DNA from: an uncultured Rikenella sp.
GTDB lineage: Bacteria; Bacteroidota; Bacteroidia; Bacteroidales; VadinHA17
Direction: 5' to 3'
Length of the DNA: 64,000 bases
Assembly (NCBI GenBank): GCA_964455705.1
Contig: CAYVYM010000002.1
Coordinates: forward strand, 67,193-131,192
The notes beneath the pieces were generated by a model. The model searched no databases, was not told the DNA's origin, and saw only the letters and a program-made list of their open reading frames with translations. Shown one piece after another: positions 14,859-56,849 of the stretch; position 1 is the stretch's first letter, and each line of letters begins with the position of its first letter. The position numbers and the translations under genes were made by a program.

Positions 14859-14862
14859 AACG

Positions 14863-16819: not shown

Positions 16820-16826
16820 CAAAACC

Positions 16827-18598: not shown

Positions 18599-18609
18599 TT
18601 TTGGCGAAG

Positions 18610-20433: not shown

Positions 20434-20443
20434 AACGAAACAG

Positions 20444-37815: not shown

Positions 37816-38349
37816 ATGGAAACTACAAAATGGATAATTGACCCTGCGCACAGCGAGATTCAGTTCAAGGTCAAACACATGATGATCACAACCGTGACCG
37901 GCAGTTTTAAGGAGTTCAGCTCGGAGGTAGAGACTCAGGGCGATGATTTTACACAGGCAAAGATCAAATTTCAGGCAGCCACGGCGTCTGTTTTCACCAA
38001 TGCCGATCAGAGAGATGCACATCTTAGGAGTGCTGATTTCTTTGATATTGAGAAATACCCCGATTTAAAGTTTGAATCGACCTCGCTTGAGAAGGTTGAT
38101 GATGAGAATTTTTCCCTAAATGGCAATCTTACAATCAAGGATATCACCAAACCGATAAAGCTTGGTGTTGAGCCCGGTGGAACAGGCAAGGATCCCTGGG
38201 GCAATCTCAAAGCCGGGTTCAGCCTGACAGGCAAGATCAACCGGAAGGAATGGGGCCTGAACTGGAATACGGTGCTGGAGAGCGGCGGTGTTCTCGTCAG
38301 TGAAGACGTACGCATCTTTTGCGAGGTGCAGTATGTCAGGCAGACCTGA
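37816..38349 (+). CDS. YceI-family periplasmic/lipid-binding protein
   Basis: WIIDPAHSEIQFKVKHMMITTVTGSF...DAHLRSADFFD...LTIKDITKPI. Confidence 0.85.
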   Translation: METTKWIIDPAHSEIQFKVKHMMITTVTGSFKEFSSEVETQGDDFTQAKIKFQAATASVFTNADQRDAHLRSADFFDIEKYPDLKFESTSLEKVDDENFSLNGNLTIKDITKPIKLGVEPGGTGKDPWGNLKAGFSLTGKINRKEWGLNWNTVLESGGVLVSEDVRIFCEVQYVRQT

Positions 38350-38401
38350 TCCTGAGCGCAATCTTAAAACCAACCAGAGTTCATGTAATGCTAAACAACT
38401 A

Positions 38402-41400
38402 TTAATACAAGATTAGTATTCTTTTAGTTATTCTTTTATTTCCGGATACGAAGCGCACAATGTAGACACCATCTTTTAATGCCGGGTTGAATTCGTAATG
38501 CCCTGATTTATGAATTTTATCCATAAAAACAGGCTGCCCAAGAATGTTGTAGAGAGTCATGATTCCGGTCTGTCCTTCCGGAAGATCAACATCAGTTATG
38601 AGTACGCCATGGGATGCATAAACGGTGAACCAACCATTATCTGCAGGTATCTCAGTTATTGCGGTTTCTTTATCAGTGAAATTCAGAAAGAATCTGGTTT
38701 TATATTCACTGGCACCCAGGTAGATTTTGTATTCATTGCCCGGCTTAAGGTCCTGGTTTATTCCTGTAACTACATCCGAAAGGTAGATTAGTTTTCCGGT
38801 GAAGCTTCCTTTGGATTCACTAACCCTGAAAATCACTTCGCCGTTTTTTTCAGTTTTAAGGCCCAGAGGTATTGAATTAAGACCATTCTCTGTGGCCGGC
38901 AGAGCATTTATTGACAGTAAGTAATCATTATCACTGATACTGTAAAAATTTGTTACACTGGCATCTGTATTATATAGTTTAAGTGCATCGAGCTGACCAT
39001 CAAAATCTGAAGTAGCTTTATCATCAAAATATAAAACAGTAGGATCAAAAGAATCCGGATTATCAGAATAGCCTGCGACTATCCTCAGTAACGAAACCAC
39101 AGCAGTCTCCCTTGACTTCGTGAAAGGATGTGTCAGATTGGTTACCCTAACGTCATTATCCATAGCCAATGTTCCGGTGACCGGATAAGAACCGTCAGAC
39201 ACATGTACAAAGAAACCCTGCATTGAAGGGATTATATTATCAACAACCCCATCGCTCGAGTTACCATTGATGAAAGTGCTGTAGGTACCTCCATACTGAT
39301 CAGTTGTATTTGCTTTAAAGAAATAGAGAGAATTGTCAATATTGTCTTTAGTCCAGCCTGATGCAGCATTCCAGTCTATGGGAGACGGGTAGGGGTTCCC
39401 CACAAGATTGAAGCCCTGTGTATATATCTGATTATGATTATACAGTGTCACAGACATACTGCCATTGTTTACGATCCCGGCAATGTCAATTGTGATTGGT
39501 GCGGAGTTTGAACCAAGATTTACTGCGTAACCTGATAATGGGTTGAGGATGTTGGTTGATGTGTTATAGTTAACCCATCCTGAAAGAGGAGTACTATTGA
39601 AATACCTGTTTTCATCATAAGAGTACAAGGGGATAAATGATGCTGACAGGTTTATGTCATCGGCCAACTCATTTACTGTGGCAGACTGAAACGGTGAGCT
39701 GAAATATTTATATCCAAACCCGGACGAGAGGTATCTCTGCATTATTAAGTTTCCCAGAACCTGTCCTGTCCCTGTTCCGTCAATAAGGGCTGTACGGGAT
39801 TCCGTTGAAAGAAGCGTTATGTTTCCGTCTGAGTGTAATGTCCCGTTACATAAGAGTATCCTGCTGACTGTCTGTCCTGAGGTAATGACAGTAGTGTTAC
39901 TTCCTGTCGCAACGGAAAGGTTATCAAAAGCCACAGGGACCGTTCCTCTTATTGTCTGCACTGTTCCATTAAATGTGATGGTACTCCCTGTTGCGGTGAA
40001 GGAGCCGTTATTTTCCAGAAAACCACCTATGGAATGATTAAAGGAACCGGTTGTGAAGGCGGCTGATGGGCCAACTGTAATATTACCTTCGAGAATAAGG
40101 TTCTGGTTTGCAGCTGCTGTAGCAGTGCCTGAAAGTGTAAAATCATAGACTACATTGAGCTGTGAGGATGGCATAGTCTTTTCGCCACTGCCGCTAAGGA
40201 TCAGGATATTATAACCAGGCACAACACCGTTTGGATTGATCACTGTCTGGGCCGTCCCGTTATACTCGACGGTGTTTTTTATTATCCCGGCTTCAAGGGT
40301 ACCGTTGTTAATTATTGCACCTGAAATCTTTATATATGAATCCAACGATAAAGTTAAAGTTGCTCCGCTTCCAACTGTAAGATTGTTAAAAGATGAAGTA
40401 CCCCACAGGAATGCAGCAGGGTTCGTAAAAATGACATTGCTATTGCTGTTGTTGAAAGAGGCACTATAATCATTTCTCCATGCATATGTGCTGCCGTTTA
40501 AGGTTAACTGTGAGCCTGTTCCTGCATTTAAGATCGCTTCGTTGTCCAACTGCAGGGACTTTATTTCCGTTGATGCCGGGAGGGAAGGGACAAAAGTTGT
40601 TGTTGAAGCATCCGGTATGACAACATCGCTTCCGGAAGAAGGAACGCCAGGGGGAGTCCAGTTCCCGGCTTCAGTCCATGATGTACTTATCGATCCGTTC
40701 CATAATGCAACAGACAATTCTGAATCTGCAAGTGTGAGTTCCAGTGTCCCATATCCTGTTCGCAGAAAAAAGACAGGTATATTAATATCTTCAATCCAGT
40801 TATCGGTTTCATCATTTGCTTCCTGTTCCAATTGAATTATTCCCGCTGGCGGACCGGGATTTCCATTTAAGAATATAACAAGTTTACTTTCAGTATTACC
40901 GTTTAGTTCAGAATCGAGATAATGGAGTCTGAAGGCCCCGGTACAACCGCTGGAATTGTCCTGGATATATTCATAAATCCTGTTGATTGCTGAGGGTTTC
41001 CATGAAGGAGAAGTGCCAATTACAATCTTAAGATTTAGTCCGTCCGGAAAATCGCCGTTTGCATCAAGCGTAACAGTTGTGAATTGATTTCCAAAGGTGT
41101 ATGGAATACCTGCAACAAAACTGTCGCGTCTGACAATGCCAGTTACATCACCAATACCCAGAGTAGTGGAAGAAGGTCCCATAGTGATCATTTTAAGGGC
41201 GGGTCCGTCATACATATCCAGGGCTCCCTTTGTTGCTGACGGGTTGGAGCTTTGCAGATGAAGTACCCCGATCACTGTTATATCGCTGCTGAATGTGACC
41301 CCACCTGACCTGTTAATTGTAATATTATTGAATGAAGGAGGCGCAGTAAATATGTCCCCGGGTATTGTTATTGCGGAAGTTCCTCCAAAATACAACGAAG

Positions 41401-44400
41401 ACAGGACACTCGCATCAATATATCCGGCACTGTTACTGACAGTTCCATTGATTCCCAGCGTGTTTCCTCCCAAACTCAGATCCCCGTTGGTAAGAGTCAG
41501 GTTATTATTTATATTGGTATTCACTGACAGGTAAACTCCAAGATAGTTATCAATAGTTAAATTATCGAAATCTGTGGTGGTCGTTCCGTTTATTGCCTGG
41601 GCTGATGTGCCATTCAAAGTAATAGTTGTTCCTGAGGAGGGAGAGAAAGTGCCATTATTAATAAAACTCCCACCAATTGAGTGATCGAAGCTTCCGGTAC
41701 CAAAGGTTGTATTATTGCCTAGAATTAAATTGCCCAATACAGTCATTGTGTCGGATGCAATAGTTGAGGCGGTCCCTGCCAGTATAAAGTCACCGGCAAT
41801 GTTCAATGGAGTGCCAGGCATGGTTTTAGCCCCGCTTCCACTGAGGATGAGATTGTAAAATCCGGATGTCAGGCCATTTGGATTTATTATTGTCTGGTCA
41901 GTTCCATTATATTCTATTGTAGTTGGCGTGTAGGCGGCCCTCAGTATCCCGTTATTGGTCAGGGTTCCTGCAATTCTGGTAACTGAACCGGTTGAAAGTG
42001 CGACTGCTGCACCACTGTTTAAGGTAAGGTCATAAAAGTCTGTTGTACCCGATATTGTCGCATTTGGATTAGTAAAAAATACTGTACTGTTCCCTGCATT
42101 GAATATTCCGCCCTCATTACTCCATACACCGCTTGAGCCATTGAGTGTAAGTTGAGAACCTGTTCCGGAATTCAGTATTGCTCCGCTTTTTAAAGTAATT
42201 GTTCCGCAAGCTGTAAAAGGAGGCAGAACAGGATCGTTGGGTGTTGTGGCAGCATCAGGAATAATCACAACAGTATTATCTGACGGAGACCCGTTCGGAG
42301 TCCAGTTTTCTGCCGTAATCCATGAAGTACTTACTGATCCATTCCAGGTGAGGGACGTCAACTCTGATTCATCGGGAGAAATTTCCACCATACCAAAAGT
42401 TGGTGGGAAAAAAGCAAAATTTACATTGGCCAGCGTGATCCAGTTTTCAGTTGGATTGAAATTTGAACGTCCATGTTCAGTAAGTATTGAGCCTGAAAAC
42501 CTGTATGACCAGTTAACTATACTGCCCTCGTCATTTCCGTTCAGTTCAGAATCAAGGTAATGTGCATTTATAATAGCCAGGGTACCACTGGCCCCGGTCT
42601 GGATAATATCATGGATTCTTTGGACTGCTCCTGTTTTCCAGACAGGAGCAGTGCCAATTTGTACTTTAAGGCTTATTGAGGATGGTAATGTTCCCACGGC
42701 AGGGAAAAATACTGAAGTGTACTGATTCCCAAATGTATAGGTTACGTCAGGCAAAATTGTGTTTCTGGTAATAACACCAGTTACATCTCCGATTCCGATA
42801 GTAGTGGCGTCTGCACTCATGGTAAGGGTTTTGTCTGCAGAGCCATCCCACATGTCAAGACTACCTTTGGTTGCTGAAGGATTAGCACTTTGCAGATTAA
42901 CCACTCCGTTCACTGTCAGATCGCAACTGAAGGTTACACCGCCTGATCTGTTGATAGTGAGATTATTGATTGAGGGATCTGTCGTAAATAAACTACCGGG
43001 TATAGTAATTGCTGAGGTTCCTCCAAAACTCAATGAAGAGAGTGAGGTTATATCGACATTCCCGGAAATCTGACTGACAGCTCCATTGATACCCAGTGTG
43101 ATTTCTCCCACCCTCAGAGTCCCGCTGGGAAGATTCAGTAAGGAGTTTATATTTGTATTAATATACAAATTGACACCTGCACTGTTGTTAATAGTTAAAT
43201 TGTAAAAGTTTGTCAGGGAGGTTCCGCTTATGGTCTGAACAGAGGTCCCATTCATAATAATGGTGCTTCCTGCACTGGAGGTGAAAGTGCCATTGTTGGT
43301 AAGGTTGCCCTTCCCGGAATGTATGTAATTGCCGGCATCAAAGGTAGCACCTGCACCAATTGTTACATTCCCTTCAATAGTATACCCAGCTGCAGCAGTT
43401 GCCGAAGTTGTACCTGCCATTGTGAAGTCCCCTTTTACATTTATTGGATTGCCAGGCAAGGTTTTAGTCCCGCTGCCGCTAAGGATGAGATTATAATATC
43501 CGGGAATTGATCCATCAGGACTAATGATAGTCTGGTTCGAACCATTATATTCAATTGTATTTGGATTCAAAGCGGCATGAAGGACTCCGTTTTGTATTAT
43601 TGTGCCTGTAATCCGCATGATACTTCCGGATTCCAGGGTCAATCCGGCACCAATGTTCAGGGTAATATCATTGAAATTTGTTGTTCCGCTTATGGTTGCA
43701 AGAGCATTGGTGAAAACCACAGTACCTGTGCCGGGATTAAATATCCCGTTGTTGGCCCATGCGCCACTTCCTCCGGCAAGCCTAAAAACAGTACCCGTTC
43801 CTCCATTCACCACGCCACCTGCCTGTATTGTCAGAGTATTTATTGTGGTGCTGGCAGGCAAAGTTGGTTCATGAGGAAGGGAGGCAGTACTTGGAATTAT
43901 TACATCATCAGCGGATAGTGGAACATATCCTTTTGTCCAGTTTAATGGAATATTCCAATCGGTGCTGACTGATCCATTCCATGTATTCAGGACAGTCTGT
44001 GAATTAGCCATGGTGAGAAAGTCGGTACCAAAAGCAGAGGATAAAAACTCTACAGAATAATTTGAATAAACAACCCAGTTTTGCGTGGTGTTGAAGCCAG
44101 ATACGCCGTGTTCTATCGCTAACGGGTAACCGGGTTGCCAGCTCCAGATAACAAGATTACCCTCAGTGTTCCCGTTAAGTTCGCTGTCGAGATAGCTCGT
44201 AGCGGTAGTTGCATATGCTCCATTTGCACCTGTCTGTATAATTTCGTATATTCTTTGTATGGCATCGGGTTTCCATGAAGGAGCTGTACCAATGGTTACC
44301 CTTATACTCATTTCAGTTGGAAGTGTTCCCGTATTCTGGAATACTAATGTATTATACTGATTACCAAACGTATAACTGACGCCGGCAACAATACTTGTCC

Positions 44401-47400
44401 GTTTAACAGTTCCGGTAACATCTCCTGCCCCTAATGTAGTGGCATTAGCCCCCAGGGTGAGGGTGAAAGCCCCCATTGCGAGACTGCCTTTTGTTGCAGA
44501 AGGGTTAGCACTCAGCAAATTCAGTATTCTGTTTACAGTGAAATCGCTGCTGGCAGAAATGCCGCCGGATCCATTAATGGTTAAATTATTCACGCTGCCT
44601 GTAAAGATTAAGGCAGGGAGGGTTATGGCAGAAGAGTTTGTAAAAGAGAGGGTAGCAGAGGCATTGCCTGCATCAATGCTCCCGTTAGCACGGGTAGGTG
44701 AGTTCCCGGATAAAGTCAAGGTGTTTGCAGCAATGGTTATGGTACCGTTTGTTAACACAAGAGTGCCACCGACGCTGACAGAACCGCCCAGGCCAATGCC
44801 ATTCGCCCGGTTCAGCGTCAGGTTGTTGAGCACAACTGCAGGCAGAGTGGTTGTGGCGCCACTGCCTCCAATAATGATATTTGAAGTACTTCCCCCTGTT
44901 AATGTGCCTGCCGCAGTAGTAATTGAACCATTAATCGTCAATGTATTTGCACCGATTGAAAAAGCTCCGTTTGTTAAAGTGAAGGATCTGGTTATTATTA
45001 AGTCTCCATTGATTATCAGGCCGTTTATATTATTCAAACCGATGGCATCAGTTGTATTACTGACCAACGCTCCCGAAGGAATATTTTGAGCGGATTCTCC
45101 TGCAAATACGATTTCTGATGATGTTGCGGTGGCGTCTATCTGTGCCCCGTTTGTAAAAATAAGGTTACCGGTGATTGTAAGTTGGTGGCCATTAATAATA
45201 AACTTATAAGTACTTTGATCGTTAGTGATATTTTTCAGACTCCTGTCCTGGTCCAGCAGGCAACTTCTGGCCGGGTTAACTGCAAACATAATGTCAGCCC
45301 CATTTGGAGGGACAGACCCATGAGTCCAGTTACCCGCAGTTCCAAAGTCTGTACTTATAGTTCCTGCCCATACAAAACTATTTACTTCTAATGCACCCAT
45401 ATTAGGAACAGCATTCCTTGTAAGACCGCTATGGTCTGTTGTAATTCCCGTACCTGATACCCCGTTCAATATTGCAGAAGAGTAATAATCCAAAGCTATT
45501 GTCCCCCCTGCATTGGCAAAGAGAGGGTCTGTATTCATACTATTGACATCCTGTCCGGTGGCGGCCTGAAACAATGCCAGCGTTGTCAGGTCTGCTCCCG
45601 CATATCCTAAGACTCCATTTGTATTTGGAGCATAATAATCGTTATAATCAATAGTCAGGTTTGTATTCCCGGCTAAACGTATAGCATAGTGTTTGCCGGT
45701 TGTCCCTCCCGAGCGGGCATTGAACAAAATATTATTCCGGTAATTTCTTGTTGAAGTATTGGCAGCATTCCATAAAGCGCCCGTTGACGATGTTGTTCCG
45801 GCAACAGTACCACCAATATAAACAGTGTTAAAATAAATGGAATTGTTATTTGTTGAACCACTGTTATCCCAAATACCATTGATAAGATAACCGGTAGCAA
45901 TACCAGGGCCAAGGATGATGATATTGTTGGCACAGGTTGTAAGTCCATTCATCAGTACCATTCCATCCATGTCAGATCCGGTATTTGAGGATGAAATAGA
46001 TAAACTATGAACTAAGTTTCGTGAAACGGTATTTACTCCTGTAGGTGGTCCTGCATAGTATATCCCATAAATGTCTACCCTGGCAGTCGGGTGTGTACTT
46101 GACACATTATAAACAGTATTGCCATTCACACTTTGTGCAGTACCTGCCGTAGTGGATTTTTGCACAATACCTATCACCGGAGCACTTGTGGTAGATCCGG
46201 TCTGCCCGCTGGCTGTTGAAATGTTATATACAGTATTGTTTTGAATAGTATTTGATCCGGCAGAAGTTTCAATACCTATAGTTTGTGATACTGATGTTCC
46301 TGTAACTTCATTGGTTAAATTAGCGACAATATTGCCTGATATGGTTATAGTCCCCGTACCATCACTACTTATACCATTTACAATCTGACCATTCCATAGA
46401 CTTGTTGAACTGGCATAAATACTGTTGGAAGTGGTAGTGCTCCCGATTATATTATTGCTAATTATTGTAGTTCCTGTTGCTGCGGTCCTGTTTATTGCGT
46501 ATATGTTGCTTGCTCTTCCGGTGTTTGTGTTAGCAGCCGTTATGGAACCAATCCTATTATGCTGGCAATCAACAATCCCGACACTTGCAATATTAATTCC
46601 ATATATAGTCTGGCCGGAAGTCCCACTGGTTACTGTAATAGACCCGGTACCGGTTGATTCCCCGATTGAGTTTCCGGTAACGGTCCCAATATCCACATTC
46701 CCGGCTATTATATTTATACTTGTCCATGCCGCGGTTCCTGAATTACGCCAGTCGAAATTCTTAATTGTATTGTTTTGAACACTGCTTGCCGTAGCAGTTC
46801 CCACGTTTAAAAAAATACCATTAAAAACATTGTTGTTATTATTTGTTTTGGTCCAGGCTGAACCCCCACACAGAGCAGTACTACCACCTATATTGTTATC
46901 TGAGATAATAAACCCCGTGCCGGAGGTATTATTTATCTGGAGGGCTCTATATGTTACACCACCTGAAGGCACAAATGAAGTTGTTTCATAAAAACTGTTT
47001 CCCGTAATTATCCACGCCGAGGTGTTAGAAGAGAGAAATACACCATTGGAATTTGTGCCGTTTCTCAGGAAATCATAAATATTATTGTTGCTGATTATGT
47101 TTCCGCTGTTTTCCCTTCCTAACGTTCCGGAAGAAAAGATGGCATTTACCGGACGGCTGGCATCAGCAGCACTGGTTATATTATTGTTATCAATTGAATT
47201 ATTATTATTTCCCGCAGTAGCGTTACTTGTTGAAAAAAAAATAACACCACTTGTGGCGACCGTTTCCGAACCCTTAATTGTGCAATATTTCACAGAATTG
47301 TTCGTAGCAGTGTTGATCAGCCTGATAGTTGATGTCCCGGCCGTGGATGCTGTACTGTTATTCGTAATGATCAGGTCAGGTGTTGTACCTGTTGCATCAA

Positions 47401-48436
47401 CCCTGCCATCAATGGTTACGTTATCGGCTCCGTTTAGGTTTATCAGAGGTGCCGATAAATTACCACTGATAGAAAGGCCTGTGTTGGTAGGATAAATATT
47501 TACCGATACATAGTCAGCGCTTCCGCTTCCACTGGCATTTAGGGCCGCAGAAGTGGTTTCGGTGGTGCTTCCATGAATCTGAATAGTAACATTACCACGA
47601 TGAGTGCCATCGTTGATTTTATCAAAAGCAGTTTTGAGGTTTGGATAGTATGAATGTAATATTCCGTTGGTAGAAGTTAATTCGACAGGGAGCATATATC
47701 TTATCCAGGTGTTGTTCGTCCCGCTTTTCACCTCCTGCCATTTGTTAAAAAAGCCGTTTACCCCGCTGTGAATACCCATATCCACTCCCGAAACAGAAAT
47801 ATTATCATTCCCGAGTTTAAGTACTATTTCGTTTGTGGTTTCATAGAAACTGACTTGTATGTCAGCATAAAGTCCGTCATTGTAGTCAATCTCAATATTA
47901 TGACTCTCGATTGTAAATATGCGGTTAGGTGCGGTTCCGGTCACCAGATATCTGCACCAGGAATCAGCAATTCTACCGAGGTTACAGTCGTACATTGAGG
48001 TGGCAACTATTTGTCCAAATCCGGTAGCGGTTGCTGTCAGATCATAGGCACTTGCGGCGGAGTAATTATTTCCGGCTGCAATGCCGTCAAGACGGATAAA
48101 ACCGTTTGAGGCTACACTTAAGCTGTTTGCAGCAGTATAGTTATTATCATAGAAGGTAAAATTAAATGGCCAATTGATGGAAACCTGAGTATCGTCACCT
48201 GTAACAATTGTGGTTCCCGATGAACAGTCAATCCAACTGTATGTAGTCCCTATTGTACCTGTTTTTGTGCCGTAGTTCCAGCTTGCCGATGCCTGGGACC
48301 TTACCTGTAAGGGTAGTCCACATAGAATCGAAAAAAATACGATAAGTATAGATATTCTAAGCTTCTTTTTGATTTCATTTTCTCCAGGAACCACCTTTAT
48401 TCTGGTGTCAGATCCGACAACATCCTTTATTCTCAT
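38402..48436 (-). CDS. giant secreted/surface protein (about 3,344 aa) with beta-helix-like N-terminal half, four mega-repeats and a T9SS-type C-terminal sorting domain
   Basis: Single uninterrupted ORF. ATG at 48436 (the track's 48469 start is a TTG). Signal-like KKKLRISILIVFFSILCGLPLQVRSQA. The C-terminal 78 aa (...LYNILGQPVF...GVYIVRFVSGNKRITKRILILY) resemble Por secretion tails. Confidence 0.85.
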   Translation of the reverse strand: MRIKDVVGSDTRIKVVPGENEIKKKLRISILIVFFSILCGLPLQVRSQASASWNYGTKTGTIGTTYSWIDCSSGTTIVTGDDTQVSINWPFNFTFYDNNYTAANSLSVASNGFIRLDGIAAGNNYSAASAYDLTATATGFGQIVATSMYDCNLGRIADSWCRYLVTGTAPNRIFTIESHNIEIDYNDGLYADIQVSFYETTNEIVLKLGNDNISVSGVDMGIHSGVNGFFNKWQEVKSGTNNTWIRYMLPVELTSTNGILHSYYPNLKTAFDKINDGTHRGNVTIQIHGSTTETTSAALNASGSGSADYVSVNIYPTNTGLSISGNLSAPLINLNGADNVTIDGRVDATGTTPDLIITNNSTASTAGTSTIRLINTATNNSVKYCTIKGSETVATSGVIFFSTSNATAGNNNNSIDNNNITSAADASRPVNAIFSSGTLGRENSGNIISNNNIYDFLRNGTNSNGVFLSSNTSAWIITGNSFYETTSFVPSGGVTYRALQINNTSGTGFIISDNNIGGSTALCGGSAWTKTNNNNNVFNGIFLNVGTATASSVQNNTIKNFDWRNSGTAAWTSINIIAGNVDIGTVTGNSIGESTGTGSITVTSGTSGQTIYGINIASVGIVDCQHNRIGSITAANTNTGRASNIYAINRTAATGTTIISNNIIGSTTTSNSIYASSTSLWNGQIVNGISSDGTGTITISGNIVANLTNEVTGTSVSQTIGIETSAGSNTIQNNTVYNISTASGQTGSTTSAPVIGIVQKSTTAGTAQSVNGNTVYNVSSTHPTARVDIYGIYYAGPPTGVNTVSRNLVHSLSISSSNTGSDMDGMVLMNGLTTCANNIIILGPGIATGYLINGIWDNSGSTNNNSIYFNTVYIGGTVAGTTSSTGALWNAANTSTRNYRNNILFNARSGGTTGKHYAIRLAGNTNLTIDYNDYYAPNTNGVLGYAGADLTTLALFQAATGQDVNSMNTDPLFANAGGTIALDYYSSAILNGVSGTGITTDHSGLTRNAVPNMGALEVNSFVWAGTISTDFGTAGNWTHGSVPPNGADIMFAVNPARSCLLDQDRSLKNITNDQSTYKFIINGHQLTITGNLIFTNGAQIDATATSSEIVFAGESAQNIPSGALVSNTTDAIGLNNINGLIINGDLIITRSFTLTNGAFSIGANTLTINGSITTAAGTLTGGSTSNIIIGGSGATTTLPAVVLNNLTLNRANGIGLGGSVSVGGTLVLTNGTITIAANTLTLSGNSPTRANGSIDAGNASATLSFTNSSAITLPALIFTGSVNNLTINGSGGISASSDFTVNRILNLLSANPSATKGSLAMGAFTLTLGANATTLGAGDVTGTVKRTSIVAGVSYTFGNQYNTLVFQNTGTLPTEMSIRVTIGTAPSWKPDAIQRIYEIIQTGANGAYATTATSYLDSELNGNTEGNLVIWSWQPGYPLAIEHGVSGFNTTQNWVVYSNYSVEFLSSAFGTDFLTMANSQTVLNTWNGSVSTDWNIPLNWTKGYVPLSADDVIIPSTASLPHEPTLPASTTINTLTIQAGGVVNGGTGTVFRLAGGSGAWANNGIFNPGTGTVVFTNALATISGTTNFNDITLNIGAGLTLESGSIMRITGTIIQNGVLHAALNPNTIEYNGSNQTIISPDGSIPGYYNLILSGSGTKTLPGNPINVKGDFTMAGTTSATAAAGYTIEGNVTIGAGATFDAGNYIHSGKGNLTNNGTFTSSAGSTIIMNGTSVQTISGTSLTNFYNLTINNSAGVNLYINTNINSLLNLPSGTLRVGEITLGINGAVSQISGNVDITSLSSLSFGGTSAITIPGSLFTTDPSINNLTINRSGGVTFSCDLTVNGVVNLQSANPSATKGSLDMWDGSADKTLTMSADATTIGIGDVTGVITRNTILPDVTYTFGNQYTSVFFPAVGTLPSSISLKVQIGTAPVWKTGAVQRIHDIIQTGASGTLAIINAHYLDSELNGNDEGSIVNWSYRFSGSILTEHGRSNFNPTENWITLANVNFAFFPPTFGMVEISPDESELTSLTWNGSVSTSWITAENWTPNGSPSDNTVVIIPDAATTPNDPVLPPFTACGTITLKSGAILNSGTGSQLTLNGSSGVWSNEGGIFNAGNSTVFFTNPNATISGTTDFYDLTLNSGAAVALSTGSVTRIAGTLTNNGILRAAYTPTTIEYNGTDQTIINPNGLTSGFYNLILSGSGAKTMPGTPLNIAGDFILAGTASTIASDTMTVLGNLILGNNTTFGTGSFDHSIGGSFINNGTFSPSSGTTITLNGTSAQAINGTTTTDFDNLTIDNYLGVYLSVNTNINNNLTLTNGDLSLGGNTLGINGTVSNSAGYIDASVLSSLYFGGTSAITIPGDIFTAPPSFNNITINRSGGVTFSSDITVIGVLHLQSSNPSATKGALDMYDGPALKMITMGPSSTTLGIGDVTGIVRRDSFVAGIPYTFGNQFTTVTLDANGDFPDGLNLKIVIGTSPSWKPSAINRIYEYIQDNSSGCTGAFRLHYLDSELNGNTESKLVIFLNGNPGPPAGIIQLEQEANDETDNWIEDINIPVFFLRTGYGTLELTLADSELSVALWNGSISTSWTEAGNWTPPGVPSSGSDVVIPDASTTTFVPSLPASTEIKSLQLDNEAILNAGTGSQLTLNGSTYAWRNDYSASFNNSNSNVIFTNPAAFLWGTSSFNNLTVGSGATLTLSLDSYIKISGAIINNGTLEAGIIKNTVEYNGTAQTVINPNGVVPGYNILILSGSGEKTMPSSQLNVVYDFTLSGTATAAANQNLILEGNITVGPSAAFTTGSFNHSIGGFLENNGSFTATGSTITFNGTVQTIRGTVPVAFDNLSVATGSNTTVITSGQTVSRILLCNGTLHSDGNITLLSTESRTALIDGTGTGQVLGNLIMQRYLSSGFGYKYFSSPFQSATVNELADDINLSASFIPLYSYDENRYFNSTPLSGWVNYNTSTNILNPLSGYAVNLGSNSAPITIDIAGIVNNGSMSVTLYNHNQIYTQGFNLVGNPYPSPIDWNAASGWTKDNIDNSLYFFKANTTDQYGGTYSTFINGNSSDGVVDNIIPSMQGFFVHVSDGSYPVTGTLAMDNDVRVTNLTHPFTKSRETAVVSLLRIVAGYSDNPDSFDPTVLYFDDKATSDFDGQLDALKLYNTDASVTNFYSISDNDYLLSINALPATENGLNSIPLGLKTEKNGEVIFRVSESKGSFTGKLIYLSDVVTGINQDLKPGNEYKIYLGASEYKTRFFLNFTDKETAITEIPADNGWFTVYASHGVLITDVDLPEGQTGIMTLYNILGQPVFMDKIHKSGHYEFNPALKDGVYIVRFVSGNKRITKRILILY
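39740..45370 (-). repeat. intragenic protein-level tandem mega-repeat, 3 full + 1 truncated unit
   Basis: Units open with W-[AN]-G-[ST]-[IV]-S-T-[DS]-[FW] at nt 45370, 43981, 42346 and 40702 (463, 545 and 548 codons apart). SANPSATKG and YLDSELNGN recur in units 1-3. The DNA copies are strongly diverged. Confidence 0.8.
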
Positions 48437-48769
48437 TAGACATAATATGAGAAATATGATTATAACCAATTATAACACAAAGGAGACTTTTCTGATGCTG
48501 ATAGTCATTACATAATAGTGTAATTAAGTTATATGATTCACACGTTAATTATAATTAATGATTTTATGCTCAATTAACATGCACATCCATGTTTCTTCTT
48601 CCTGAGATTCCTTAAGTCACAAGTGCAATTACCGCGACATTGTGAAAAAAATGCAATTGGCCCTATACATTGATCCACACAACAGTCGGTTGTTGAATAG
48701 CAACAATAAATAGCGTATTAACAACTATTTGTTTAGGTATTTGTAACGATTCCGAAGATTGATCCGGGT

Positions 48770-48777
48770 ATCTTTGC
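48770..48777 (+). promoter_or_regulatory. candidate -7 box (TATCTTTG) for the HTH-pentapeptide gene
   Basis: Perfect TAnnTTTG 28 nt upstream of the ATG at 48805. Confidence 0.45.
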
Positions 48778-48804
48778 CATATCAACAAACTAAAATATGG
48801 AGCT

Positions 48805-49755
48805 ATGTTAAGTACAATGATTATTGGGAATAAAATTGCCAAAGCACGAAAGAGGGTCAATATTTCACAGGCCCGGCTTGCTGAGAAACTATTCATCAGT
48901 CCGCAGGCAGTCGGGAAGTGGGAGCGGGGGGAATCAATGCCGGACATAATAACATTTAACCGTCTTGCGGAAATCCTGGGTGTTGACCTTAACTATTTTT
49001 CAGAAAGCTTCCAGCCGGTGGCTACTGAAACGGCAGCCGCTGAGCCTTTGGATAAGCAACCGGATGAATTGAATTCGTCTAATGAGATGCAGTTGACATC
49101 CGGAAAGCAGAAGAAAAAGCTTGGCTGGGATATGTCACGCGGTAATTGGGTGGATGCTGACTTTTCCGGATTGAAAAATCTGCATGCAAAATTCAGTTCC
49201 TCCAACATGCTGCGCTGCAAGTTTATAGGTTCCGATCTGACCGGACTTCTTCTGAAAGGTAATAATGTTGATAGCTGCGACTTCTCAGGTTCCGACTTCG
49301 GCAACAGCCACATTCAGGGGTCCAACCTGGTCAGCAACATGTTTAAGGACTGTTCACTGAAGGAAACCCAATTTTCAGATAGCTATATCTCTGGCTGCGA
49401 TTTCACCGGCGCTGATTTTACAGACGTGAAGTTTAAATCCGGTGGCTTTACCGGAGTGGTCACTAAATCTGGCGACCTGGAGAAAAATACAATTGCAAAT
49501 GCTGTGTGGAATCGCACCTCTTTTAATGCTATGTATATTGCCGATATAGTTATCATGGGAACAGTGGAGGATTGCTCGTTTGAAAACTGCGCATTTACCA
49601 GGGTGGCATTCAGGAACTCAACACTTATTAACACTTTCTTTAAAAACAAGAGTCTGAAACGTATCCGGTTCATTGACTGTCAGGCCGATCGGATGACTTA
49701 TGAATTCCTGAAAAACGGTAAGGCAGATTTAACCGGTATCACATTGTTAACCTAA
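48805..49755 (+). CDS. XRE-family HTH domain fused to a pentapeptide-repeat domain
   Basis: N-terminus IGNKIAKARKRVNISQARLAEKLFISPQAVGKWERGESMPD (HTH_3 type). C-terminal half is runs of A/C/S-[DN]-[LF]-x-x pentads (ADFSGLKNLHAKFSSSNMLRCKFIGSDLTG...CDFTGADFTDVKF). Confidence 0.75.
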   Translation: MLSTMIIGNKIAKARKRVNISQARLAEKLFISPQAVGKWERGESMPDIITFNRLAEILGVDLNYFSESFQPVATETAAAEPLDKQPDELNSSNEMQLTSGKQKKKLGWDMSRGNWVDADFSGLKNLHAKFSSSNMLRCKFIGSDLTGLLLKGNNVDSCDFSGSDFGNSHIQGSNLVSNMFKDCSLKETQFSDSYISGCDFTGADFTDVKFKSGGFTGVVTKSGDLEKNTIANAVWNRTSFNAMYIADIVIMGTVEDCSFENCAFTRVAFRNSTLINTFFKNKSLKRIRFIDCQADRMTYEFLKNGKADLTGITLLT

Positions 49756-49867
49756 GAAGGAGGAAATGAATAACGGGCAGGTTTATTTCCTGGTTGCATC
49801 TTAATTGAATATGAACCATAACCCGGATAGGGTTGTTTATTATTGTCTAACCTATTAATTCATCCAT

Positions 49868-50293
49868 ATGGAAACAGTTACTGTCAATTACTGGGCCGTT
49901 GCTACAGGTGCCGTCCTCTCCATGGTAATCGGGGCAATCTGGTACGGTCCGATCTTCGGGAAGAAATGGGCTGAGATAATCGGCGCTGACATGTCAGACC
50001 CGGTAGCTAAGAAGCAAATGCAGAAATCGGCTGGGCCGTTGTATTTTGTTCAGTTTATTATGACACTCTTCCAGGTATTGGTACTGGCACACCTCGTAGC
50101 CGACACGGAGCGCGCAGGGGGGCTTGAGAGATCACTATGGATCTGGGCGGCCTTCGTAATTCCGACTCTCGCAGGTGCTGTGATGTGGACCAATGAGATC
50201 GGGAAGCTGAAATGGTCACGCTTCCTTATACAGGGAGGGTATCAGTTGATCCTCTTCATAACATTCGGATTGCTTTTACAGTTCTGGAAGTAG
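49868..50293 (+). CDS. DUF1761 membrane protein
   Basis: YWAVATGAVLSMVIGAIWYGPIFGKKW N-terminus, four TM helices. Confidence 0.6.
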   Translation: METVTVNYWAVATGAVLSMVIGAIWYGPIFGKKWAEIIGADMSDPVAKKQMQKSAGPLYFVQFIMTLFQVLVLAHLVADTERAGGLERSLWIWAAFVIPTLAGAVMWTNEIGKLKWSRFLIQGGYQLILFITFGLLLQFWK

Positions 50294-52712: not shown

Positions 52713-53597
52713 ATGAAAACAGAAGAGGAAAAGATCAGTGTGGCGATCCAGGGCGTGCGTGGGTCATTTCATGATATAGCGGCAGTTGAATTTTTCGCGG
52801 GGGAAGAGATAACAACAGTACCATGCGATACCTTTGATGATCTGTTCCGCATTGTAAGAGGAGGGAAGGCCGGTTACGGCATCGTGGCATTTGAGAACTC
52901 TGTGGCGGGAAGCATCCTTCCCAACTACGAGTTACTTCGCAAGTCGCAGCTCATCGTGACCGGGGAGATCTACCTTCGCATTAAGCAGAACCTGATAGCT
53001 CTTCCCGGACAGCATCTGTCTGATATAACCGAAATACACTCTCACCCCATGGCCATACAACAGTGCAATGTCTTCCTTGATATGATGAGGAAGGAGGGGG
53101 TGAAGGTTGTTGAGACCATTGACACCGCCCTCAGTGCCATGCTTATCAGCGAGAAAAAGCAGCATGGCATAGGCGCTATAGCCAGCAGCAGCGCGGCAGC
53201 AATGTACAACCTGGCGATCATTAAAAAGGAGATCGAGGCTGACAGGCAGAACTTCACGCGGTTCCTGATCATCTCAGGCAGGAGTAACGGGGCTCCCGCC
53301 ATAAGTATGGAAAACAACGCTGACAAGGCGATGGTATGCTTCTCACTGCCCCATAAGGTAGGCTCATTGTCGCAGGTGCTGTCTGTCCTTGCCTTCTACC
53401 AGGTCAGCCTGACAAAAATCCAGTCTCTGCCTATTGTTGGCAAGCCCTGGGAATACCTGTTTCATATCGATTTGTTATTTAGCGACTTTCAGCGCTACCA
53501 CATGGCTCTCGATGCTATACGGCCGCTGACGGAGGGGCTGGAGATAGTTGGTGAATTCAGGCAGGGGGTAATGCCCCATGCTGCCGGACAAAACTGA
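52713..53597 (+). CDS. pheA: prephenate dehydratase (with ACT domain)
   Basis: ISVAIQGVRGSFHDIAA, ENSVAGSI, TRFLII, ACT region SLPHKVGSLSQVLSVLA. Confidence 0.85.
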   Translation: MKTEEEKISVAIQGVRGSFHDIAAVEFFAGEEITTVPCDTFDDLFRIVRGGKAGYGIVAFENSVAGSILPNYELLRKSQLIVTGEIYLRIKQNLIALPGQHLSDITEIHSHPMAIQQCNVFLDMMRKEGVKVVETIDTALSAMLISEKKQHGIGAIASSSAAAMYNLAIIKKEIEADRQNFTRFLIISGRSNGAPAISMENNADKAMVCFSLPHKVGSLSQVLSVLAFYQVSLTKIQSLPIVGKPWEYLFHIDLLFSDFQRYHMALDAIRPLTEGLEIVGEFRQGVMPHAAGQN

Positions 53598-53619
53598 AGA
53601 GAACCCAAACCGTTCAATT

Positions 53620-54813
53620 ATGGAGAAACCAATTATAAAAGCAGCCTCACGCACCGGACTTGTGAATGAGTACTACTTCTCGACCAAGCTGGCCGAGATA
53701 GCCCACATGAGACAACAGGGCATTAACGTCATAAGCCTGGGTATAGGCAGTCCGGACATGCCACCTGCCCCCGATGTAATTGAGGCGCTCGCGAAGAACG
53801 CATCTGACAGCAGCAATCACGGCTACCAGAGTTACAGGGGCATATCTCAGCTCAGGATTGCATTTTCATCATGGTACATGAATTATTTCAGGGTAACGCT
53901 CGAGCCGGATACGGAGATACTGCCACTGATTGGTTCCAAGGAGGGGATAATGCACATCAGCATGGCATTTCTCGATCAGGGTGATGAGGTGCTGGTACCT
54001 GACCCCGGTTATCCGGCTTATGGCGCTGCTGCGAAGCTGGCCGGAGGCCTTCCCAGGAGCTATGACCTTAAGGAGGAAAACGGTTGGATGCCTGATATTG
54101 AGGCTATTGAGGCCTCGGGAGTGAGGAGGGTAAAGATGATGTGGATCAACTATCCACATATGCCCACCGGCGCCAGGGCCACCCCGGCGATCTTTGAGCG
54201 GCTTGTCTCCTTTGCCCGCAGGCACAACATACTGTTATGCCATGACAATCCCTACAGTTTTATACTGAACAATGATCACCTGAGCATCTTCTCCGTTCCC
54301 GGATCCCGTGATGTCGCCCTTGAGCTGAACTCGCTCAGCAAATCGCATAACATGGCTGGTTGGAGGATTGGCATGGTTGCCGGTAGCAGTTCCTTTATAA
54401 ATGACATCCTGAAGATTAAGAGCAACATGGACTCAGGCATGTTCCAGCCGTTACAGGCCGCTGCCGTTAAGGCTCTTGCGGCACCGGACGACTGGTATGC
54501 ACAGCTCAATGAGATCTACAGCCGGCGCCGAAACAGAGCCGCGGAGATAATGAATGCCCTTTCATGTACCTTTGATCCGGGGCAGGCCGGGCTCTTCCTC
54601 TGGGGGAAAATCCCGCCGCAGTTCACTGATGCCGTTGAGATGACAGAGAAACTGTTGCATGAGAATCATATCTTTATCACACCCGGGTCAGTCTTCGGAG
54701 ACAACGGTATGAGACACATCAGGATATCGCTTTGCGCAACTGAGGAACTCCTCACTGCTGCACTGGAAAGAATTAATTCACACAAAAAGGCAACAACCGG
54801 TCAAACACCTTAA
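53620..54813 (+). CDS. class I/II pyridoxal-phosphate aminotransferase (probable aromatic/prephenate aminotransferase)
   Basis: LGIGSPDMPP, NYPHMPTG, SLSKSHNMAGWRIG (PLP lysine). Start placed at ATG 53620, after the pheA stop. Confidence 0.8.
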   Translation: MEKPIIKAASRTGLVNEYYFSTKLAEIAHMRQQGINVISLGIGSPDMPPAPDVIEALAKNASDSSNHGYQSYRGISQLRIAFSSWYMNYFRVTLEPDTEILPLIGSKEGIMHISMAFLDQGDEVLVPDPGYPAYGAAAKLAGGLPRSYDLKEENGWMPDIEAIEASGVRRVKMMWINYPHMPTGARATPAIFERLVSFARRHNILLCHDNPYSFILNNDHLSIFSVPGSRDVALELNSLSKSHNMAGWRIGMVAGSSSFINDILKIKSNMDSGMFQPLQAAAVKALAAPDDWYAQLNEIYSRRRNRAAEIMNALSCTFDPGQAGLFLWGKIPPQFTDAVEMTEKLLHENHIFITPGSVFGDNGMRHIRISLCATEELLTAALERINSHKKATTGQTP

Positions 54814-54818
54814 ATCAA

Positions 54819-55670
54819 ATGTCTGCAAATATATGTATAGTGGGCCTGGGTCTCATAGGAGGCTCCCTGGCCCGAAGCCTGAGGCTTAACGGCTTCTCCG
54901 GCAGGATCACGGGTGTGGAGAGCAATCCGCATCATTGTACCATAGCAATGTACCGGGGTCTGGCCGACGAGTTCCTTCCGCTGGAGGAGGCTGTTGAGCA
55001 ATCGGAGATCATCATCCTCTGCGCTCCTGTTGATGTCAACTGCCAGCTTCTGCCCCGCGTTCTCGACCTGATTCAGGGCACAACAAAAGTGGTTACTGAC
55101 ATGGGGTCAACCAAGGCTGATATCTCTGCGGCAGCCGCAACCCATCCTGCCCGGGGCAGATATGTGTCAGCTCATCCTATGGCAGGCACGGAGCACTCCG
55201 GGCCGGCGGCAGCTGTTGACAGGCTCTTCCATGACAAGGTGGCCATCATATGCGATCCCAGGCGTAGCGACGAGGATGCCCTGGAGCTGATAACAGCCCT
55301 GTTCCAGTCGTTTAACATGCATATCCGGTATATGAAGTCATCAGACCACGATGTGCACGTGGCGTACGTGTCGCACATATCACATATAACTTCCTTCGCT
55401 CTGGCGCTGTGCGTCCTTGAAAAAGAGAAGAACACCGAGAACATCATGTCTCTTGCCGCGGGAGGGTTTGAGAGTACGGTTCGCCTTTCGAAGAGCAGCG
55501 GAGAGACCTGGGCCCCGATCTTCATTGGGAACTCCGGTCCCATACTCGAGGTTATTGACACTTATATCGAAAAGATGCGCCTCTTCAAGCGATATATAAA
55601 GAATGGCGACCACGACTCACTGAGAGACCTGATGAGATCAGCCAACGAGATAGGCCATATACTTAAATGA
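54819..55670 (+). CDS. tyrA: prephenate dehydrogenase
   Basis: ICIVGLGLIGGSLARSL Rossmann motif, AHPMAGTEHSG. Confidence 0.8.
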   Translation: MSANICIVGLGLIGGSLARSLRLNGFSGRITGVESNPHHCTIAMYRGLADEFLPLEEAVEQSEIIILCAPVDVNCQLLPRVLDLIQGTTKVVTDMGSTKADISAAAATHPARGRYVSAHPMAGTEHSGPAAAVDRLFHDKVAIICDPRRSDEDALELITALFQSFNMHIRYMKSSDHDVHVAYVSHISHITSFALALCVLEKEKNTENIMSLAAGGFESTVRLSKSSGETWAPIFIGNSGPILEVIDTYIEKMRLFKRYIKNGDHDSLRDLMRSANEIGHILK

Positions 55671-55685
55671 ACCTCTGACTATATC

Positions 55686-56801
55686 ATGAAAAGAGAGACC
55701 ATTACACCAACGAATAAGAAACTTGATATCACTCCGATAGAGGAGTGGTCCATATATAAGCAACGGCCCCTGATGATAGCCGGGCCCTGCAGTGCCGAAA
55801 GTGAGGAGCAGGTGATGCTCACCGCCGCCGGGCTGGCAGCCACGGGCAAAATTGATCTCTTCCGTGCCGGCATCTGGAAGCCGAGAACCCGTCCTGACCA
55901 ATTTGAAGGAGTGGGCACCGTAGGGCTGAAATGGCTGCGGACGGTGAGAGAGGTATACGGTCTTCCCGTCTCCGTTGAGGTGGCTACGGAGAAGCATGTC
56001 TATGAAGCATTAAAGCATGGTGTTGATGCCGTCTGGATAGGAGCACGCACAAGTGTCAACCCGTTTGCCATGCAGGAAATAGCAACAGCACTTAAAGGCG
56101 CAGACGTTATGGTGTTCGTCAAGAATCCCATTAATCCTGATCTTGAACTCTGGATCGGCGCCATTGAAAGAATAAGCAAGGCGGGTATCACTCATCTTGC
56201 TGCCATCCATCGCGGATTCTCATCGTGGGAGAAGAGTGCCTTCCGCAACCAGCCGCGATGGCAGATACCAGTTGAACTGCGCCAGCGTATACCTCTCCTG
56301 CCGATGATATGTGATCCGAGTCACATGGGTGGCGACAGGTCGTTCATCGGCGACCTTTCACAGAAAGCGATGGACCTGAACTACGACGGCCTGATGATAG
56401 AGTCACACATCGATCCGGAAAGCGCGCTGAGCGACAGGAAGCAGCAGGTCACACCGGCAGAGCTGACTGGGATAATTGACAGCCTGGTGCTCAGGTCACC
56501 GACGACGGATGACCCCGAGTTCCTTGAGACGATTGAGGACCTGCGCAGCCAGATAGATGTATATGACAACCTGCTCCTTGATATCCTCGAGAGCCGCATG
56601 CAGGTGGCTGAGACAATTGGGAGATACAAGAAGGAACACAACATCACCATACTACAAAGCACCAGGTGGAAGGAGGTGAAGAACAACGCTGTGGACAAAG
56701 GGGTAAGAAAGGGGCTGACACCGGAGTTCATCCAGACCTTCCTGGAGGCGATACACCAGGAATCTATCACTCACCAGATGAAAGTGATGAAAGAAGATTA
56801 A
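55686..56801 (+). CDS. bifunctional 3-deoxy-7-phosphoheptulonate (DAHP) synthase / chorismate mutase type II
   Basis: KDO8P/DAHP-synthase-like TIM barrel (MIAGPCSAESEEQ, CDPSHMGG, LMIESHIDP), then a C-terminal chorismate-mutase helix region (LRSQIDVYDNLLLDILESRMQVAETIGRYK). Confidence 0.8.
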   Translation: MKRETITPTNKKLDITPIEEWSIYKQRPLMIAGPCSAESEEQVMLTAAGLAATGKIDLFRAGIWKPRTRPDQFEGVGTVGLKWLRTVREVYGLPVSVEVATEKHVYEALKHGVDAVWIGARTSVNPFAMQEIATALKGADVMVFVKNPINPDLELWIGAIERISKAGITHLAAIHRGFSSWEKSAFRNQPRWQIPVELRQRIPLLPMICDPSHMGGDRSFIGDLSQKAMDLNYDGLMIESHIDPESALSDRKQQVTPAELTGIIDSLVLRSPTTDDPEFLETIEDLRSQIDVYDNLLLDILESRMQVAETIGRYKKEHNITILQSTRWKEVKNNAVDKGVRKGLTPEFIQTFLEAIHQESITHQMKVMKED

Positions 56802-56849
56802 TTTAGTATACTTGTATACAGTTCACATTTCTGAATTATAAACCGTTCA

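Follow-up and report, generated by a model that had tools for sequence, protein, structure and literature searches.

A 64,000-nucleotide (nt) stretch of DNA from an uncultured Rikenella sp. (GenBank assembly GCA_964455705.1, contig CAYVYM010000002.1, positions 67,193 to 131,192), hereafter called the window, contains one gene of 10 kb on the minus strand that predicts a protein of 3,344 amino acids (aa). The gene probably encodes a surface protein of a Bacteroidales-type bacterium that is exported by Sec and by a type IX secretion system (T9SS), anchored to the cell, rod-like and variable in length, and that is most likely an adhesin; a probability of roughly 0.65 is assigned to this reading as a whole. 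The parts are, in order, a signal peptide, a 220-aa head, a shaft of ∼750 aa, 3.5 copies of a ∼545-aa cassette, a ∼420-aa module resembling that of RemA and RemZ, and a type A C-terminal domain (CTD). Their positions are given below, with residues counted from the Met at nt 48436.

38402..48436, minus strand: complete open reading frame (ORF) that starts at the first ATG and has 3,344 codons before the stop
48293..48436, minus strand (aa 1-48): N-terminal leader with Sec signal peptide, from sequence reading and a hydropathy scan
47627..48292, minus strand (aa 49-270): N-terminal head module, family-specific; distal end if the protein is C-terminally anchored
45389..47626, minus strand (aa 271-1016): 'helix A' shaft, presumed parallel beta-helix, with a weakly choice-of-anchor-Q-like end
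44000..45388, minus strand (aa 1017-1479): unit 1, short (463 aa), W-A-G-T-I-S-T-D-F...N-W at nt 45370
43991-44539, minus strand (aa 1300-1482): beta-sandwich copy 1, in unit 1
42365..43999, minus strand (aa 1480-2024): unit 2, full, motif at nt 43981, beta-solenoid and sandwich; the unit modelled with AlphaFold2
42356-42916, minus strand (aa 1841-2027): beta-sandwich copy 2, in unit 2
40721..42364, minus strand (aa 2025-2572): unit 3, full, motif at nt 42346
40712-41278, minus strand (aa 2387-2575): beta-sandwich copy 3, in unit 3
39920..40720, minus strand (aa 2573-2839): unit 4, motif at nt 40702, truncated solenoid and no sandwich
38645..39919, minus strand (aa 2840-3264): RemA/RemZ-like pre-CTD module, with QRYL..GFGYKYFSSPF, GFNLVGNPYPSPIDW and IPSMQGFFVHV
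38405..38644, minus strand (aa 3265-3344): T9SS type A C-terminal sorting domain, found with TIGR04183; aligns with the CTDs of RemA and RemZ

Reading frame and export signals

The stop-free frame extends from 38402 to 48469 and includes 3,355 codons when counted from a TTG at 48469, as in the ORF listing. The first ATG is at 48436 and an in-frame GTG at 48391 is another possible start. An earlier note on this DNA, made from the letters alone, had described a single uninterrupted ORF beginning with a signal-like hydrophobic segment, and both descriptions are borne out. The frame is intact throughout, and the leader consists of a KKK n-region, a 15-residue hydrophobic core, ISILIVFFSILCGLP (mean hydropathy 2.5), and an A-x-A-like cleavage site (VRSQA followed by SAS). 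N-terminal fragments of homologues in other organisms can be aligned from the cleavage region onward, each preceded by a hydrophobic leader of its own.

At the other end, the curated model TIGR04183 (cut-off 23 bits) matches the whole protein with 30.1 bits and the last 85 aa with 39.1 bits, while the type C model NF033708 reaches 27 bits, below its cut-off of 40. The TIGR04183 match supports both the 78-aa Por-type CTD and the T9SS export proposed in the earlier note, with the corresponding Pfam model staying just under its own cut-off (see below). The CTDs of RemA and RemZ have been solved in the SprA-PorV translocon, where the CTD is located inside the SprA pore and touches PorV (Lauber et al. 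2024, PMC10994853). The status of the protein as T9SS cargo, for which the confinement of all 76 related genomic loci to Bacteroidota (see below) also speaks, is taken to be considerably more secure than the reading as a whole.

The region preceding the CTD is homologous to RemA and RemZ

With the 431 residues that precede the CTD as query, 973 relatives were found. The top 120 align with almost the whole query at 55-62% identity; they are stand-alone proteins of ∼570-600 aa, typically ∼585 aa, made up of a signal peptide, a few solenoid coils, the tail module and a CTD. This region had previously been taken for ∼360 unique residues, but it is ∼420 aa long and is the most widely shared part of the protein.

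A profile built from the stand-alone proteins and the window tail, run against the sequences of PDB, matches the Flavobacterium johnsoniae gliding adhesins RemA at residues 896-1435 of 1,436 (E 5.8e-27) and RemZ at residues 570-1113 of 1,114 (E 4.6e-20). Both alignments run from T-D-W-N-T-A-S-N-W-T-P-N-G-V-P...V-I-P via F-N-L-I-G-N-P-Y-P-S to the last strand of the CTD. In a direct BLASTP comparison, for which the RemA query was rebuilt from the profile-search alignment, window aa 2865-3342 are 27% identical to the RemA segment over 515 columns (E 4e-21), and the start of unit 4 is 32% identical to RemA residues 898-985 (88 residues, E 1e-6). On these alignments, the C-terminal ∼470-540 residues are homologous to RemA and RemZ.

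An AlphaFold2 model of the window tail has a mean predicted local distance difference test (pLDDT) score of 61. Residues 270-505 of the model, which include aa 3109-3264 of the module, are of moderate to high confidence, mostly beta-strand, and may be read as two beta-sandwiches. A Foldseek search with this model returned generic tandem Ig or GH2 sandwiches and the CTD-like DUF3244.

Tails were also compared between the window protein and L003, L056, L057 and other giant proteins sharing the head, shaft and cassettes. The window tail is as close to that of L003 as to the stand-alone proteins (55-62% identity), but shares only 24-28% identity with those of most other giants. Because the tail is nearer to the stand-alone proteins than to most giants' tails, the comparison suggests that family members have swapped tails by recombination, and the module appears to be exchangeable. 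Uncharacterised stand-alone proteins such as P0150, P0179 and P0213, which match window aa 2840-3344 including a solenoid stub, the module and the CTD, lack the head, the shaft and the cassettes.

In both contexts examined, the stand-alone gene is preceded by a neighbour with a precomputed PF26696 'PTL_trimer' domain, a neighbour that the window gene does not have. The stand-alone gene is directly downstream of it, in frames that overlap or nearly abut (L078:7633-11782, L079:7411-15081 and L080). In L079/L080 these two genes are flanked by two DUF4402 genes, a gene for a weakly PapD-like or Fn3-like 295-aa protein and one for a ∼910-aa protein with a faint SdrD_B match, and this cluster resembles a small operon for a surface structure.

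RemA, a type A adhesin described with a lectin domain, forms static and highly mobile foci on the cell surface and is partly released, while the RemA CTD alone, fused to SprB, forms static foci only (Paillat et al. 2025, PMC12618676). This difference would be explained if the pre-CTD module were a dedicated post-secretion docking module that sets the fate of type A cargo on the surface, by way of an outer-membrane partner or the gliding track. The idea is speculative and rated as unlikely; were it true, the window protein would be a length-tunable passenger riding on the module.

The central region is a tandem array of predicted solenoid-plus-sandwich cassettes

Self-BLAST in 100-aa tiles detected repeats at offsets of 463, 545-549 and 1,087-1,095 residues from aa 1017 to ∼2845, with 42-67% identity and E-values down to 1e-41. 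The protein has exactly four instances of W-x-G-x-[IV]-S-T-x-[WF]...N-W, located at aa 1023, 1486, 2031 and 2579 (nt 45370, 43981, 42346 and 40702), and these are precisely the four unit starts, 463, 545 and 548 codons apart, that the earlier note had read from the translation. A four-way alignment shows that unit 1 is short by ∼85 solenoid residues and that unit 4 ends after ∼270 residues. At the DNA level the unit copies share 42-60% nt identity and their third-position identity is 28-45%, near saturation, so that neither a recent duplication nor a collapsed-repeat artefact can account for them. Elsewhere in the window, none of the modules of the giant protein was found a second time.

Pfam and NCBIfam searches with the whole protein and with eight segments matched only the CTD; G8, Amnionless and choice-of-anchor-Q were below threshold. 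The unit also remained unmatched in searches of the PDB sequences, whether the whole protein or the unit profile was used. The G8 and Amnionless N-terminus signals fall in the first ∼40 residues of the unit. G8 (PF10162) scores 13.2 bits in unit 4, against a gathering score of 22.9 (E 0.08), and has no match in units 1-3, while 5 of 55 aligned homologous segments match at E≤0.01 (best 1.5e-5). The link between the unit start and G8 is therefore graded as marginal. In the crystal structure of TMEM2 the G8 'domain' forms the first turns of a continuous right-handed beta-helix (PMC10206443), which would fit a G8-like start to each solenoid here.

Structure prediction of one unit, a check that the earlier note had proposed, gave a confident result. 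The AlphaFold2 model of unit 2, based on an alignment of this unit with the other three units and 51 homologous segments, is nearly all beta, with a mean pLDDT of 97.3 and a predicted template-modelling score (pTM) of 0.92. Model residues 1-45 form an N-terminal segment with the W...NW...P...IP motif. Residues ∼50-370 are composed of short strands, three per ∼21 residues, the signature of a predicted beta-solenoid with about 15 coils. A sandwich with ∼12 strands is made by residues ∼390-548 (the sandwich domain as a whole is ∼185 aa), and the most conserved motifs of the unit, GDV.G, Y.FGN, P.WK and YLDSEL.G..E, are located there; GDV.G, Y.FGN and YLDSEL.G are invariant, and it is speculated that YLDSEL.G..E might bind Ca2+. 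The unit had been suspected of being a multi-domain cassette, and its division into solenoid and sandwich in the model supports this.

Foldseek against PDB gave a best E-value of 0.016 for the unit model, the top matches being capsule tailspikes, pertactin, Ag43 and IgA1 protease, all with template-modelling (TM) scores ≤0.25; weak matches also include the RsaA surface-layer (S-layer) protein. Matches in BFVD, a set of predicted viral structures, were marginal (best E 9.7e-4) and comprise pectate-lyase-like and parallel beta-helix proteins. TM-scores over all matches in both sets are ≤0.29. Since these matches are weak and the TM-scores low, the resemblance is one of fold class only, and the unit as modelled belongs to the general beta-helix fold class without a close structural relative. 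The PbH1 and Beta_helix models of Pfam and NCBIfam have no match in the giant protein, the solenoid-like strand periodicity being seen in the AlphaFold2 model. The earlier note had also considered that the unit might resolve into common, named domains with orthologues everywhere. This holds in part, with no named domain recovered but an ordinary fold class and orthologues that are common in Bacteroidota.

Head and shaft

The head (aa 49-270) has just 26 detectable relatives, all of them N-terminal fragments without Pfam domains, and is conserved at 55-87% identity. Neither Pfam nor NCBIfam contains a relative, and a head profile run against the PDB sequences returned nothing. A NIDO-like fold had been suggested for this module; PF06119 has no match at E≤10 in the window segment and none at E≤1 in any of the 26 homologues, and the suggestion is rejected.

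Asn, Thr, Ser and Gly together make up 52% of the shaft (aa 271-1016). The N-N-x-[IVL] motifs are spaced 27-40 aa apart and not every 20-25 aa, as had been proposed for NNxI/GNxI turns. From composition and motif periodicity, the shaft is presumed to be a parallel beta-helix. Mean column identity is 57% across 21 orthologues. An NCBIfam search with 22 shaft orthologues gave no match, a weak choice-of-anchor-Q-like stretch at the end of the shaft staying below the NCBIfam threshold, and the shaft profile found no relative among the PDB sequences.

Distribution and age of the family

A word-indexed search with unit 2 found 154 relatives, mostly fragments annotated as 'hypothetical'. The annotation of a few is 'beta strand repeat-containing' or 'G8 domain-containing', and some carry precomputed PF10162 or PF18962 matches. 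In many, the C-terminal portion of one unit leads on to the N-terminal portion of the next, and the tandem cassette itself is therefore conserved. A HMMER profile of the sandwich alone, run against 1.84 billion cluster representatives, matched 1,123 proteins at E≤0.001, 664 at 1e-10 and 318 at 1e-30. The best 150 of the 1,123 contain one to five copies each and are up to 5,699 aa long.

One genome per GTDB species was also scanned with the pattern [HSA]YLDSEL[ND]G, giving 191 confirmed stretches, from which the best 76 loci were kept. All 76 are in Bacteroidota. They include many Bacteroidales metagenome-assembled genomes (MAGs), Prolixibacteraceae, Lentimicrobiaceae, Chitinophagales and a Kaistella; the cultured hosts are Flavobacterium soli, F. 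arsenatis, F. noncentrifugens, F. circumlabens, F. pectinovorum, F. tegetincola, F. subsaxonicum and F. zepuense. Among these loci the Flavobacterium ORFs are ∼2,300-2,500 aa with one sandwich, and the Bacteroidales ORFs are mostly 3,000-3,700 aa with two or three, a few exceeding 5,000 aa with four or five. Cassette number thus varies from 1 to 5 among relatives, which answers the copy-number survey suggested in the earlier note.

The order head, shaft, cassettes and tail is the same as in the window protein in at least 8 loci (L003, L017, L019, L020, L043, L049, L054 and L074). Window sandwiches 1, 2 and 3 best match the copies at the same position in L003, with 78%, 65% and 51% identity, respectively; among themselves the window copies are 44-51% identical. 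Sandwich copy 2 also groups with the second-position copies of six further loci. Because the copies are positionally orthologous between loci, the triplication is, on sequence comparison, older than the split of these lineages. Together with the divergence of the DNA copies, positional orthology rules out a recent duplication or an assembly artefact as the origin of the units, and the view of an old, maintained architecture put forward earlier stands.

Some strong unit homologues (E 1e-91 to 1e-110; P0008, P0012, P0015, P0022 and others) are labelled Dehalococcoidales, Dehalococcoidia or Chloroflexota, and weaker ones Ignavibacteria, WOR-3, Blastocatellia, Verrucomicrobia or Proteobacteria. 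These labels could be due to binning contamination, or the cassette could have spread beyond the phyla that carry a T9SS.

Proposed function and alternatives

The protein would cross the inner membrane by Sec. Its CTD would then dock in the SprA/PorV translocon, in the way that has been demonstrated for RemZ and RemA, and the protein would be carried outside, where its C-terminal end would keep it on the outer surface. The shaft and the solenoid-sandwich cassettes would form a stiff stalk of perhaps 50-60 nm, a very rough figure from coil counts at ∼0.48 nm per coil plus the sandwiches. This stalk would hold the conserved N-terminal head away from the cell and present it to a ligand, and the number of cassettes, 1-5 in relatives, would set its reach. 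The cell-surface adhesin or fibre proposed in the earlier note is supported by the RemA/RemZ homology of the last ∼480 residues; the adhesin function is probable from homology and architecture.

Several observations weigh against this reading. The Pfam model for the CTD, PF18962 (Por_Secre_tail), scores 14.7 and 22.7 bits, under its gathering score of 27. The conserved Lys of type A CTDs represented by RemZ K1110, which forms a hydrogen bond with PorV (Lauber et al. 2024, PMC10994853), aligns in the window protein with an Arg that directly follows a Lys (...ITKRILILY, nt 38405-38430); most close homologues carry K-K there. The core of the RemA-like module is poorly modelled, with pLDDT <50 at model residues 63-269 (window aa 2902-3108). 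Pfam revealed no known binding domain anywhere in the protein, and no lectin family matched any segment at E≤10. The 64-kb window includes no T9SS or gliding genes, and the neighbours of the giant gene are housekeeping genes. The handedness and length of the stalk and the geometry between helix and sandwich are derived from secondary structure alone.

The region could instead be an assembly artefact or a decaying pseudogene, which the state of its closest relative might suggest. In the Bacteroidales MAG MFD00905.bin.1.96 (L002:4249-14519), the counterpart is co-linear, of the same length and 80% identical at the nt level, but is split into four ORFs of 676, 357, 1,194 and 1,113 aa, a split that may reflect assembly indel errors or decay. 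The window frame itself has no stop codon over 10 kb, the unit copies are too diverged to be collapsed or mis-joined repeats, at least 8 intact co-linear orthologues of 3,000-5,000 aa exist, and amino-acid conservation is high in every part of the giant protein, all of which makes this explanation extremely improbable. A further alternative is a secreted or surface enzyme that degrades or modifies polysaccharides, such as a pectate-lyase or tailspike-like depolymerase, with active beta-helix grooves and with sandwiches acting as carbohydrate-binding modules. Capsule-degrading tailspikes and proteins of the pectate-lyase superfamily give the unit its best, if weak, fold matches, and carbohydrate-active enzymes (CAZymes) are frequent among T9SS cargos. 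GH18 and GH130 genes are located 5-8 kb away, and choice-of-anchor-Q, weakly seen in the shaft, tends to accompany beta-helix regions. Set against this, lyase and hydrolase families, the Beta_helix and PbH1 models and the PDB sequences gave no match, the Foldseek E-values in PDB are all >0.001 and, with TM-scores ≤0.29, indicate fold class only. Tandem repetition of a whole cassette in variable number is typical of structural stalks rather than of catalytic domains, and the tail is one common to adhesins. An enzyme is accordingly judged improbable.

A released matrix or surface-coat protein, shed or self-assembling as a biofilm scaffold or in the manner of an S-layer, is likewise thought unlikely. 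Type A CTD cargos may be either soluble or anchored, and the RemA CTD allows both anchoring and release, RemA being found partly in the medium (PMC12618676). The weak fold matches include self-associating autotransporters (Ag43) and the S-layer protein RsaA, but these matches are not significant. The conservation of a family-specific head, at 55-87% identity, suggests a specific ligand-binding tip, and the gene is present in a single copy among housekeeping genes, without genes for assembly or for a partner. The protein might also be a true gliding-motility adhesin moved, like RemA, by the GldLM-driven machinery, a narrower version of the proposed anchored adhesin. The whole pre-CTD module and the CTD are homologous to RemA and RemZ, and one-copy relatives occur in gliding Flavobacterium species. 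The homology is, however, confined to the tail, the window has no gld or spr genes, the helical motion of RemA was not reproduced with a different tag (PMC12618676), and the same tail occurs in ∼1,000 small proteins of ∼585 aa that are themselves unlikely to be motility adhesins; a gliding role is considered quite doubtful.

Comparison with known systems

The anchored adhesin proposed here is best compared with RemA (Fjoh_0808) and RemZ (Fjoh_0803), which are also large beta-rich surface proteins with a Sec signal and a CTD. All three have, in a stretch of homology of ∼480-540 residues, the N-terminal W...NW...P...D.VIP motif, a short solenoid, a ∼400-aa pre-CTD module that includes F-N-L-[IV]-G-N-P-Y-P-S, and a type A CTD. 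RemA is ∼1,400 aa and is described with a lectin domain, whereas none was detected in the window protein of more than twice that length. The window protein also differs in its head and possesses a 750-aa shaft and 3.5 cassettes; run against the PDB sequences, the cassette profile did not match RemA or RemZ, and the shared tail is only distantly related to that of RemA.

SprB, the major gliding adhesin of F. johnsoniae, is likewise a giant, repetitive, T9SS-secreted surface filament of Bacteroidota, but has a type B CTD and needs an adjacent SprF shuttle, whereas the CTD of the window protein is of type A. No type B CTD or SprB-repeat match was found in the protein and no porP/sprF-like gene in the 64-kb window, the nearest genes encoding YceI, SDR, DUF2490 and HTH-pentapeptide proteins.

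More distant comparisons concern the beta-helix. TMEM2/CEMIP and fibrocystin are G8 beta-helix proteins, and some homologues of the window unit carry PF10162, the window unit itself falling below the cut-off. They are eukaryotic, and no tandem cassette organization is described for them (PMC10206443), whereas the window protein is bacterial. Pertactin, Ag43, IgA1 protease and the P22 and HK620 tailspikes share with it the use of an elongated single-chain beta-solenoid as a stalk or binding surface. They differ in lacking any sequence relationship or repeating sandwich spacer, in their low structural similarity (TM-scores ≤0.29) and in their export by a type V secretion system or as part of a virion.

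Genomic context

The genes around the giant gene have no connection with secretion. Downstream of it are genes for an EamA transporter and for VTC, DUF4956, DUF2490, SDR and YceI proteins. Upstream, a divergent gene (48805-49755, plus strand) predicts a helix-turn-helix (HTH_3) DNA-binding domain fused to pentapeptide repeats and is followed by DUF1761, DUF1801 and DUF4256 genes. An identical HTH-pentapeptide protein, followed by the same DUF1761 gene, is encoded on one short contig of run SRR9906328. Farther off in the window are an aromatic amino-acid biosynthesis cluster, a BatD gene, a molybdopterin oxidoreductase gene and the GH18 and GH130 genes. The compact aromatic cluster (52713-58100) includes prephenate dehydratase, an aminotransferase, prephenate dehydrogenase, a DAHP synthase-chorismate mutase fusion and EPSP synthase. 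The BatD-like gene (18592-20433) is probably part of a Bat operon of same-strand ORFs at 13968-21202. A Bat operon is also found near the small RemA-tail protein at L078, probably by coincidence.

G+C content over the giant gene is 41-44%, compared with 47-54% in its flanks (window positions 38001-50000). Much of this may be due to coding rich in Asn, Thr, Ser and Ile, and a foreign origin is also possible. The flanks of the window gene share no similarity with those of the L002 orthologue, even by tblastx, and the gene is therefore in different neighbourhoods in the two genomes.

Implications

The protein belongs to a known kind, that of giant repetitive surface proteins with T9SS export and a beta-helical stalk, and many uncharacterised members of its family are present in public data. 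No description was found in the literature of the cassette, of the head, or of the widespread and apparently exchangeable RemA/RemZ pre-CTD module that also occurs in the stand-alone proteins. Giant CTD-bearing proteins are among the least annotated genes of Bacteroidota, and this one can now be divided into five recognisable parts. The head, shaft, cassette and tail are unmatched by Pfam and NCBIfam, and curated models of the sandwich and of the tail would annotate ∼1,100 protein clusters and ∼1,000 proteins, respectively. For the question of how type A adhesins such as RemA stay on, or are coupled to, the gliding apparatus, the homology of the tail draws attention to a conserved module located upstream of the CTD. 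The variation from one to five cassettes among relatives provides a natural series in which fibre length could be compared with attachment.

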